Shown piece after piece: positions 3,660-14,252 of a stretch of 64,000 bases of DNA. A program made the translations under genes and the position numbers. The notes beneath the pieces were generated by a model, which saw only the letters and a program-made list of their open reading frames with translations, made no database searches and was not told where the DNA came from. Origin of the DNA: Eledone cirrhosa (lineage: Eukaryota); assembly GCA_964016885.1 (NCBI GenBank), contig OZ024740.1, forward strand, positions 110,422,001-110,486,000. The letters run 5' to 3'. Within the stretch, counting starts at the first letter, position 1; every line of letters starts with the position of its first letter.

Positions 3660-6039
3660 CTAATACGTGCTCTAGGTAATGAGGGGGCCAAAGCCGTTGG
3701 ATGGGCCCGCGTGACAGAAGCTAAAAGTGGAAATCGATCCACCATCCGGTCGTTGCAAGACGAAGATGGACGAGTGATCCGGGAGCCTAAGCAGATGTGC
3801 GAGGCCTTTCAAAAGCACTTTGCCCGATTGTTCGGGGGAGGCGAGGGTCCGGGCCGGGGCGTGGATTTCGGTCCATACCTCGACGGCCTGCCGCGTCTCT
3901 CGAACAAAGAGGCGGAGTCCTGCGAGGGACCAATCTCGGCTGATGAGATCGGAGATGCGCTGAGCCAATGCAGCAGACGCAAATCTCCAGGTCTCGATGG
4001 TATACCTTACGAACTTTATTTAGCAATGCCGGTCTTCTTCTCCGAACTCCTCGAAGCGGTCTACTGCAATTGGCAGCAGAACGGGAGAATTCCTTGTTCT
4101 GTAGCCAAGGGCGTAGTCACGCTGGTGAGGAAGGACGAGAACAAGGGGGATAGTATAAATAATTTTCGGCCCATAACCCTGCTAAACACAGAGTTAAAGA
4201 TTTTGGCCAAGGTGTTAGCAAAGAGGTTGGCGCTTGTCGTGGGTGGCCTGGTGGGAGATGCGCAGACATGTGCTATCCCATCCAGGTCCATTCACGATAA
4301 CCTCCACCTCATGCGATACATCATAGAGAGGGTTGGCAACAAACCCGGCTTCGGTGGGGCCCTGATCAACTTGGATCAGTCTAAGGCCTTCGATAGGGTC
4401 GACCATGGTTACCTGGATGCGGTGTTAGCGGCGGCTGGGTTCGGTCCTGTTTTCAGAGGCTGGATCACTGCCCTACATAGCAACCACATCTGTTCTAGGA
4501 TCAAGGTGAACGGCTACCTTTCGAAGCCGTTCGAAATCACACGATCCATTCGACAGGGGTGCCCTCTCTCCTCCCTTCTGTACGTATTGACTCTCGAGCC
4601 TTTACTGAGGAAGTTGGAGTTGTTGCAGGGTATCCCCCTGGAACCAGGATTGAGCAAAGCGGTGTCGGCCTACGCCGATGACGTAACAGTAATGGTATCA
4701 ACCGACTCGGAGATCGAGGCGATCGGTACCTTACTGGAGGAGTACGAAAGGTTGTCAGGAGCGAAACTGAACCGGGAAAAATCCATCGGGCTGCAACTCG
4801 GAACGTGGAGAGGCAGACCGATGCCTCCCGATGGTGTCGTCGGACACTGGATGGAGGGCCCGGTAAAGTTGCTTGGGGTCTGGTTTGGACCGGACCTCCA
4901 GGTGGAAAAGAACTGGAACGAGGTTACGAACAAGGTGTTTGCACTAACCCAGAAATGGGCCAAGTGTAAGCTGTCCCTAAAAGGCCGGGCGGAGGTGGCG
5001 AACATTTACATAGCGTCCGTCACTTACTACCGCCTGACTGTCGTGCCTTGCCCTAAGGAAACACTCACCACCATGGAACGCATGCTCTTCCAATTTCTTT
5101 GGAAGAAGCGTCCTCCTATGGTGAGAAGATCCATCTGCTGCCAACAACCTTCGAAAGGAGGGCTGGGGATGCCGTGGTTGATGATGCGTAGGCACGCATT
5201 AAGGCTACGGCACCTACAGGTATTCCTCACTGGTCAACCGGTGTGGGCTCCGTTCGTGAAACGAGCCTTTCCGAGACTCGTCTCACTCACCGAGCTACAG
5301 TCCTGGGTCAAGCAAAGATCCGGAAAACTGGGAGACTGGCACACTGAGTGTGCTCAGGCGCTCAGGGCTCTCTGGCAAGCGGGCCGGGCCATCGGTGGAG
5401 AATCCACCTCATCATTCTATAGAGGGCTGGTGGCTAGCAGGGGCGATGACACCCTGCAATGTCCGGGCGTGGCTGATCTGTGGGGCTACGCCGAACAACT
5501 GCTGTCGCGGGTGGCGCCGATTAAATTGACAGCCGAGTCCGTGATGACAATCAAACCGCCTCCCCTCTTCACAAAGGAAGCAAAGGCGGTTTTTCTGTGC
5601 GTAATAGCCATGTTGAAAGAGGTTGTTTGGTGGACACGATTGAAAGGTCTGAGGTCAGGCAACTTCCTCTCTGGCCATAGTCTGGTCTACTTCTTCCGAT
5701 ATCACTTCGGAAGAAGGATAAGAATGGAGAGAGAGGTGCTTGGCCACAGGCAGTTTTATGAAAGGTGGGTGATAGTGGCGAGAATGGCTCGTGTAAATGG
5801 GCCTTCTCTGTATACCATCCTGTAGGTAAAGAAGTAAAGGAGAGGGGAGCACCTTCTCCATGTGCTCCCCGGGCAAAGGATTGCACACTTTTTCGGGGGT
5901 GTGTGCAACCCCCATCACGTCCCCTCCCTTTTGAGGTTATTTTCGATTATTTTCATGTTACACCCTTTTTACTCGATTATATGTAAACTCCCCCTTTGTA
6001 TTTGTCCCTTCTTTTTATGCCTTTATGGTAAATAAAGAA

Positions 6040-6040
<1 letters not shown>
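3660..6040 (+). mobile_element. Tx1-clade (L1 group) non-LTR retrotransposon, copy 1, 5'-truncated
   Basis: RT ORF, then 3'UTR with AATAAA at 6031-6036 and (TATC)n at 6041-6123. No endonuclease or ORF1 upstream. Confidence 0.93.
3711..5825 (+). CDS. Truncated ORF2 reverse transcriptase of Tx1 copy 1 (open frame, in-frame deletion near 5456)
   Basis: Motifs KSPGLDG, NFRPITLLN, DQSKAFDRV, RQGCPLS, YADD, KGGLG. About 76 codons present in copies 2 and 3, including the CPRC zinc-finger half, are missing. Confidence 0.9.
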   Translation: MTEAKSGNRSTIRSLQDEDGRVIREPKQMCEAFQKHFARLFGGGEGPGRGVDFGPYLDGLPRLSNKEAESCEGPISADEIGDALSQCSRRKSPGLDGIPYELYLAMPVFFSELLEAVYCNWQQNGRIPCSVAKGVVTLVRKDENKGDSINNFRPITLLNTELKILAKVLAKRLALVVGGLVGDAQTCAIPSRSIHDNLHLMRYIIERVGNKPGFGGALINLDQSKAFDRVDHGYLDAVLAAAGFGPVFRGWITALHSNHICSRIKVNGYLSKPFEITRSIRQGCPLSSLLYVLTLEPLLRKLELLQGIPLEPGLSKAVSAYADDVTVMVSTDSEIEAIGTLLEEYERLSGAKLNREKSIGLQLGTWRGRPMPPDGVVGHWMEGPVKLLGVWFGPDLQVEKNWNEVTNKVFALTQKWAKCKLSLKGRAEVANIYIASVTYYRLTVVPCPKETLTTMERMLFQFLWKKRPPMVRRSICCQQPSKGGLGMPWLMMRRHALRLRHLQVFLTGQPVWAPFVKRAFPRLVSLTELQSWVKQRSGKLGDWHTECAQALRALWQAGRAIGGESTSSFYRGLVASRGDDTLQCPGVADLWGYAEQLLSRVAPIKLTAESVMTIKPPPLFTKEAKAVFLCVIAMLKEVVWWTRLKGLRSGNFLSGHSLVYFFRYHFGRRIRMEREVLGHRQFYERWVIVARMARVNGPSLYTIL

Positions 6041-6123
<83 letters not shown>
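6041..6123 (+). repeat. (TATC)n tract between Tx1 copies 1 and 2
   Basis: About 21 perfect units. Confidence 0.97.
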
Positions 6124-13801: not shown

Positions 13802-14035
13802 GTTAAAGAAGAGAGCAAATGGAAGAAAGGAGCACTTGCACAACGCGCTCCTGAAGTTGAGGGTTGTTCTATCGACGGAGTATTAAACAACCCATTTGTG
13901 GAGCCTCCCCCCTATTGGGGATTTCGATTGTTTTAATTGTTTGTTTTTATATCTTTTACACAACTGTATGTAAAATCCTCGGCATGTCTTTGTATTGTCC
14001 CCATTTCTTGTTGTGCCCTTGTGGCTAATAAAGAC
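11463..14035 (+). mobile_element. Tx1-clade retrotransposon, copy 3, 5'-truncated
   Basis: Starts mid-ORF2 (AKCGNSSTIRSL) immediately after (TATC)n. Ends with AATAAA at about 14027-14032 and (ATCT)n at 14036-14058. Confidence 0.93.
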
Positions 14036-14252
14036 ATCTATCTATCTATCTATCTATCGTTATGTAATTTGTTTCTCCCCGTCACTATCTACATATCATA
14101 CCCAGATTTTCTTTATCTCTTTCACACACGAAGGCACATGCACACACATACACATATACCTGCATACGCGCATGCATGCACACCTACCCAAGGGAGCAGA
14201 TAGACAGATAATACAAAGTTATATAGATACATAGATATAGATATGGAAATAG

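Follow-up and report, generated by a model that had tools for sequence, protein, structure and literature searches.

(TATC)n-targeting LINE copies stacked head to tail in the genome of Eledone cirrhosa

The 64-kb stretch of the Eledone cirrhosa assembly analyzed here (contig OZ024740.1, positions 110,422,001 to 110,486,000, called the window in its full length) contains three copies of a retrotransposon without long terminal repeats (non-LTR) of the apurinic/apyrimidinic endonuclease (APE) type, all in the same orientation (+) and joined by (TATC)n, with recognizable remnants of the APE, reverse transcriptase (RT), and zf-RVT domains. We put at roughly 0.8 the probability that these are three independent insertions of a poly(A)-less long interspersed nuclear element (LINE) of the L1/Tx1 type, which sit at the step C|TATCT within (TATC)n, likely because the APE endonuclease nicks the GATA strand there. 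Judged by sequence identity, the copies belong to three subfamilies (copy 1 to A, copy 2 to B, and copy 3 to C), and the lineage that these form is a real, recently active, microsatellite-targeting LINE. The original prediction, made from the letters of the window alone, had described three co-oriented copies that end in AATAAA, a few bases, and then (TATC)n instead of poly(A), and this description is accurate: AATAAA lies at 6031, 11399, and 14027, and no window copy has poly(A).

TATC sequence at both junctions

Loci were selected by similarity of the 3' end only, which gave 101 anchors, window copies included (40 of the 40 scored matches for subfamily A, 22 of 40 for B, and 39 of 40 for C). 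No more than 40 bases from the 5' junction, a TATC-phase run of at least 8 is present in 54 of 57 full-length anchors and in 23 of the 44 truncated ones (77/101 together), the latter being cut at different points, while in 20 arbitrary genome stretches of 10 kb such a run is found in 0.46% of the 40-mers, counted per strand. On the other side, TATCT directly follows the element end in 89/101 anchors, with (TC)n seen only as a neighboring repeat, and poly(A) in 0/101. For subfamily A throughout the genome, TATCT comes after 824 of 908 3' ends, and CTATCT lies no more than 24 nt upstream of 342 of the 375 heads on the reverse strand (background, 0.9%; the forward-strand count contained heads counted several times and was left out). 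TATC repeats also precede all 30 heads fetched (40 scored) in a search with the 5' untranslated region (UTR) of copy 2, and in raw reads from a different sample they form the loose end before the subfamily-A 5' head (120 reads). A family is regarded as target specific when one sequence type occupies >20% of its flanks (PMC4494074); the corresponding shares here are 77/101 of the 5' flanks and 824/908 of the 3' ends.

Target-site duplications have their start in TATCT and extend into unique sequence, with lengths of 12 to 22 nt overall: 16 to 22 nt in subfamily A (loci L105, L107, L110, L114, L128, L131, L134, and L139) and 12 to 17 nt in subfamily C (L090, L091, L093, and L094, with L096 identified by eye). 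Duplications that our script derived from pure repeat or from a neighboring copy (L108, L127, L132, L137, and L138) are artifacts and were left out. Where the repeat is short, the bases that follow the element end recur at the 5' junction up to and including unique DNA, so the apparent tail belongs to the target. A single TATC unit can be enough, as in the weak sites used at L110, L093, and L094. Just 5' of the duplication there is a C in 6/6 inspected ATA-ended C copies with a recognizable duplication (L081, L090, L091, L093, L094, and L096; two by eye). (TATC)n is thus supported as the target and not just a tail, and the minimal target looks like C|TATCT and not a long array. The proposal of a (GATA)n/(TATC)n target that yields self-extending arrays is upheld by the duplications and by the genome-wide stacking.

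If (TATC)n were a mere tail encoded by the element, the copies would have inserted nearly at random and survived or accumulated passively in repeat-rich DNA. This would fit the 16 of 44 truncated copies without a 5' target and a 3.0-Gb assembly that is very rich in microsatellites. However, the 23 truncated copies with 5' TATC have unrelated breakpoints (binomial p ~3e-42 against the 0.46% background), the informative duplications leave none of the sequence beyond the element end unexplained, and neighboring copies show an orientation bias of 32:2, so that this explanation is already largely refuted and we consider it very improbable. The original prediction had itself envisaged that most copies might have TATC only at the 3' end and random 5' flanks, which the 5' counts given above contradict.

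The orientation bias comes from the 98 anchors outside the window: the family piece directly behind the anchor is co-oriented in 32 and opposite in 2. A further 10 or so seem to have pieces or heads behind them that escaped the count, several of these from subfamilies outside the three references. Family pieces are present in 3 of the 20 arbitrary stretches. The downstream neighbors start at many different positions, and at L114, L091, and L112 the duplication of the newer copy extends into the start of the older one that follows, which shows sequential insertion at an existing junction. A tandem duplication, the co-mobilization of a single long transcript, or an assembly error could also produce a head-to-tail layout with repeat junctions, but we give them virtually no weight. 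The window copies are only 74 to 81% identical, which speaks against tandem duplication, as the original prediction had argued when it called them separate insertions, and they represent three subfamilies of different age. The varied start points of the neighbors are equally unfavorable to such an origin, contigs in two runs (possibly from the assembly's own sample) carry the unique 5' flank of copy 1 up to the junction, and the raw reads of another sample have TATC before 5' ends. One of the only two opposite neighbors, at the 3' junction of L124, consists of two subfamily-A copies whose tails face each other, with a short TATC/GATA junction between them.

Reading of the target site and the ATT-targeting sister families

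Target-primed reverse transcription is an established mechanism, and on this basis the endonuclease would nick the GATA strand at approximately 5'-AGATA^GAT-3', and reverse transcription, primed by this nick, would start at the RNA end ...AAUAAAGAAAUC. A second nick 12 to 22 nt away would duplicate the target. As observed, the duplication leaves TATC at both ends, and later copies take these junctions in the same orientation, giving rise to head-to-tail stacks of mixed age. In the window, copy 3 likely inserted in the 3' repeat of copy 2, and copy 1 likely came last, in the 5' repeat of copy 2, losing the upstream target. The C at -1 is on the non-priming side of the nick, beyond the reach of selection by an RNA primer, which argues that the protein reads the site and not only RNA pairing; we therefore infer that the endonuclease itself recognizes the repeat, to which pairing of the RNA tail could contribute.

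Two related families, E and F, use a different repeat. ATT/AAT repeats follow 28 of 30 family E loci, with (CTT)n after one and no repeat after another, and ATT repeats follow 17 of 20 family F loci, the other three having no recognizable end in range; in full-length copies of both families, (ATT)n is also visible by eye on the 5' side. ORF2 (open reading frame 2) of the least broken F copies is 65 to 69% identical to that of A, and the endonucleases of the TATC and ATT families share 60 to 64% identity. Family E ends in AATAAAGAAATC just like A and C, so the element boundary is fixed. RT trees group the TATC subfamilies in a single clade (97/99), to which F is sister (90/99), and leave E outside; one of these trees and the approximately unbiased (AU) test left out four frameshift-affected or redundant rows. 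The free tree places the TATC families among the ATT families, and a topology that instead unites E, F, P0003, and the Argonauta protein in a clade is not rejected by the AU test (p-AU 0.25), for which reason we claim no direction for the switch between ATT and TATC. Many ATT-family insertions (L286-L355 and window ~49300-49950, minus strand) adjoin one abundant short repeat, starting or ending in (ATT)n or (GTA)n, which is probably a short interspersed nuclear element (SINE) and may supply ATT targets.

Site selection could also be left to the RNA, with a loosely specific endonuclease and a read-through (UAUC)n tail that picks the site by pairing with the GATA strand at the nick; in that case the RNA would pass the target on, and ATT and TATC could be exchanged without any change in the enzyme. 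The lack of poly(A), the single element end shared by the TATC and ATT families, and a conservation that peaks at the expected pairing positions of the primer, +1 to +5, speak for such a process. Nevertheless, the target C at -1 of the six ATA-ended C copies is outside the paired region, the sites of L110 and L139 could pair over only ~3 nt, and 26 endonuclease positions separate the TATC from the ATT families, though here the difference is confounded with descent. Selection by the RNA tail seems unlikely to us.

Recognition of C|TATCT by the endonuclease has its own difficulties. The bases of highest target conservation, +1 to +5, are exactly those with which an RNA read-through tail could pair. 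The 16 truncated copies mentioned above, copy 1 among them, lack both a 5' TATC run and a duplication; their 3' flanks still open with TAT and mostly run on as microsatellite, and the simplest assumption is that their upstream target disappeared in the course of insertion or later. An empty allele of copy 1 was sought in contigs of three runs (one sample) and in one restriction site-associated DNA sequencing (RAD-seq) run, which contained no joint and listed no alternative continuation at 3662 and were uninformative. The anchors are the top matches of each search and no random sample, with L137 and L138 sharing one array, and the ages and order of the window copies were judged from identity to a single natural copy per subfamily. 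Inverted 5' pieces (twin priming) were seen in 0 of 15 young truncated copies.

The 26 endonuclease positions differ consistently between 44 copies of the TATC families and 10 of the ATT families (frameshifted singletons excluded), and they include Y152, which aligns with R155 of L1, and S194, which is located in the stretch aligned with the L1 beta-hairpin. Both R155 and the beta-hairpin of L1 have been implicated in target contact, purified Tx1L-EN nicks its target sequence specifically, and loop grafts on L1-EN shifted specificity only partly, as described in the text of PMC1950540. Candidate residues for the switch are Y152 (versus C), S194 in the beta-hairpin (versus M/I), and LCQ61-63 (versus (V/P)SR); there has been only one switch, so the 26 differences are candidates only. 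Tentatively, an undescribed octopod LINE lineage might have given up (ATT)n for (TATC)n as its target via a few changes on the endonuclease surface, leaving an intact and recent natural pair, and, as each insertion regenerates the target, the lineage would build its own GATA-punctuated arrays. Were this the case, residue swaps could reproduce the change of target. With 60 to 64% endonuclease identity, the same RNA 3' end, and two repeats, the pair would allow a direct test of target change: the TATC side has intact young copies (17/25 sampled full-length), so its enzyme needs no reconstruction, and the shares of enzyme and RNA pairing can be directly separated.

Coding capacity and known relatives

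The natural copy L134:1708-7506 is a 5.8-kb subfamily-A element in which ORF1 (626 amino acids [aa]) and ORF2 (1145 aa, P0001) are open, and the two frames are open in 17/25 sampled full-length copies of this subfamily. Exact patterns of subfamily A gave 908 3' ends and 754 5' heads genome-wide, which would be an unusually high full-length share for a LINE if both patterns cover the same copies; the C-type end pattern has 2426 occurrences. Besides copy 1 itself, 39 of the 40 matches scored with its 3' end are exact.

P0001 contains PF03372, PF00078, and PF13966, and its best matches in the PDB are to LINE-1 ORF2 (E 3e-50). The endonuclease model (predicted local distance difference test [pLDDT] score of 93.6) has L1-EN as its best fold (template modeling [TM] score of ~0.8), and all of the catalytic residues E39, D141, N143, D202, D226, and H227 are kept. 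A zf-CCHC was found in 10/17 ORF1 cores, and the model of the core of an intact relative (pLDDT 82.7) retrieved tandem-RRM proteins as top, weak folds (E ~1e-4, TM ~0.3); the ORF1 core is thus predicted to fold like two RRM-like domains plus a CCHC knuckle, a combination that is typical of Tx1. The family is an APE-type non-LTR retrotransposon of the L1 group, to which the ORF2 architecture, variable 5' truncation, fixed 3' end, and duplications all fit, and membership in the Tx1 clade is plausible. Two ORF2 searches for named Tx1 references returned no Kibi, Koshi, or Tx1L, and the ORF1 search gave no match; one coral protein with an automatic TX1 label scored 300 bits to ORF2, and a quick tree did not settle the placement. 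The closest named protein is from Argonauta hians (67%), in line with an octopod host. Relatives in metagenomes (80 loci) are only 25 to 38% identical and have (TATC)3 on the sense strand in 0/80, which is uninformative on the age of the target. Likewise uninformative, on expression, were two runs from other organisms (RNA or possibly RNA), which yielded no reads.

At least three further full-length 5' heads also start in (TATC)n, directly after the anchor's repeat at L088, L109, L112, L117, L120, L127, L228, and L238. Each has its own ORF1 with only 37 to 52% identity to that of A, which means that diversification is much faster in ORF1 and the 5'UTR than in ORF2. Another relative, 74 to 76% identical in the RT region (L241:6627-7420, L256:4993-5030, and L261-L275; internally deleted in L241), begins right after (TATC)3-4. 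An AT-rich flank upstream of this repeat is common to most of its 15 copies, and the relative may have spread inside another repeat element, with ~3000 first-look candidates. The head of family D was left out of our counts because the upstream flank is common to its copies.

Mammalian-type L1 has a poly(A) tail and a T-rich nick site (TTTT/AA), neither of which is found here (poly(A) in 0/101, target C|TATCT). Human LINE-1 resembles the present family in its APE-RT-zinc finger ORF2, endonuclease fold, 5' truncation, and target-site duplications, and is set apart from it by the poly(A)-less end, the defined target, and the ORF1 core of two RRM-like domains with a CCHC knuckle. Waldo and Mino belong to the R1 clade and Dong to R4, with a restriction-like nuclease, in contrast to a family that ORF2 similarity places in the L1 group. 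Their repeats, (ACAY)n, (AC)n, and (TAA)n, respectively, appear in a list of microsatellite targets (ACAY, AC, TC, TTC, and TAA) in the text of PMC3812793, and that of Dong is of the same class as the target of the ATT sister families. The closest parallels are Kibi (TC)n and Koshi (TTC)n, of the Tx1 clade of teleost fish (texts of PMC4494074 and PMC3812793), which are also APE-type non-LTR elements with microsatellite-specific insertion and a T/C-rich sense strand; the present family differs in its TATC unit, its invertebrate host, and the lack of (TC)n or (TTC)n as target, TATCT following 89/101 ends. A tetranucleotide target is shared with the Tx1 families of crocodilians that occupy (TTCC)n/(TTTC)n, described in the text of PMC4494074 along with tandem SINEU-3 insertions that sandwich a duplication, but the unit is another one here, and there are hundreds of full-length copies, many intact ORFs, and an (ATT)n sister group. 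In Octopus vulgaris, the repeat annotation includes 80 L1-Tx1 families, 13 of them recently active (PMC13282606), which may include orthologues of the present family; the word "target" is absent from the main text and one supplement of that work.

Microsatellite recognition by APE retrotransposons was called "not well understood" in the text of a 2013 review (PMC3812793). No GATA/TATC-targeting LINE was found in the literature searched, Repbase and Dfam being outside that search, and GATA, TATC, and ATCT are absent from the main text of PMC4494074, whose Fig. 3 labels and supplements could list such a target. We rather think that a GATA/TATC target is unpublished. Microsatellite targeting as such was already known from Kibi and Koshi, and the new part is apparently the target used here together with a close sister group on another repeat. 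Targeting explains the multikilobase LINE stacks at GATA repeats in the E. cirrhosa genome, in which GATA marker loci may often carry such insertions.

Copies and other repeats in the window

The features of the three copies are collected in Table 1. The original prediction had placed the starts of copies 2 and 3 directly after the repeat, as we also find, and that of copy 1 at 3660, which is corrected here to 3662.

Table 1. Retrotransposon copies and (TATC)n repeats in the window
Feature	Position	Strand	Description
Copy 1	3662..6042	+	5'-truncated, subfamily A (youngest); starts at position 3192 of 5.8-kb full-length L134
Copy 1 ORF2 remnant, open	3663..5825	+	Residues 350-947 and 1023-1145 of P0001; RT domain
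Element end AATAAAGAAATC	6031..6042	+	Conserved; also in ATT-targeting sister family E
(TATC)n between copies 1 and 2	6043..6123	+	Period-4 run 6040-6123, 21 units
Copy 2	6124..11412	+	Full-length-type, older subfamily B; 5'UTR, ORF1, ORF2, 3'UTR
Copy 2 ORF1, broken	6607..7981	+	Stop at 6649-6651, frameshift; CCHC knuckle ~7270-7312
Copy 2 ORF2, broken	8179..11163	+	Seven pieces; APE endonuclease, RT, zf-RVT
(TATC)n between copies 2 and 3	11413..11462	+	Period-4 run 11415-11462, 12 units
Copy 3	11463..14038	+	5'-truncated, subfamily C; starts at position 3239 of L075
(TATC)5, 3' target remnant of copy 3	14039..14058	+	Period-4 run 14036-14058

Copy 1 has 3 mismatches in 1794 bases to L134, and its 5' junction, which had been reported to lack TATC, proved on reinspection to have neither TATC nor a target-site duplication. 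An in-frame deletion of 228 bp in its ORF2 (5455/5456) removes the zf-RVT motif; this deletion is private among 40 copies, which rules it out as the mark of a nonautonomous subfamily. Copy 2 is 90 to 92% identical to the natural copy L140 and has an internal deletion of ~385 bp near 8986, and copy 3, with TATC on both sides, is 96% identical to L075, with one frameshift and one in-frame stop. Between copies, the identity is 81%/74% for 1 versus 2, 77% for 3 versus 2, and 79%/68% for 1 versus 3 (68% in one 3' piece). The repeat between copies 1 and 2 is target DNA that flanks copy 2 on its 5' side and likely received copy 1, and from the identities to L134, L140, and L075 copy 2 is likely the oldest, followed by copy 3, with copy 1 last.

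A (GATA)3 on the plus strand at 3537-3548, ~115 bp upstream of copy 1 and opposite in orientation to the target, is probably due to chance. A decayed 220-bp RT fragment lies at 50076-50294 (minus strand), with best genomic matches of 76 to 80%, mostly to ATT-targeting family F. The remaining repeats of the window are a 22-bp minisatellite at 16902-23856 (314 copies, 94% matches), a 1.2-kb (CAC)n-type array at 42647-43828, a 222-bp two-copy tandem at 32260-32703, and a 26-bp unit repeated 8 times at 45272-45483.

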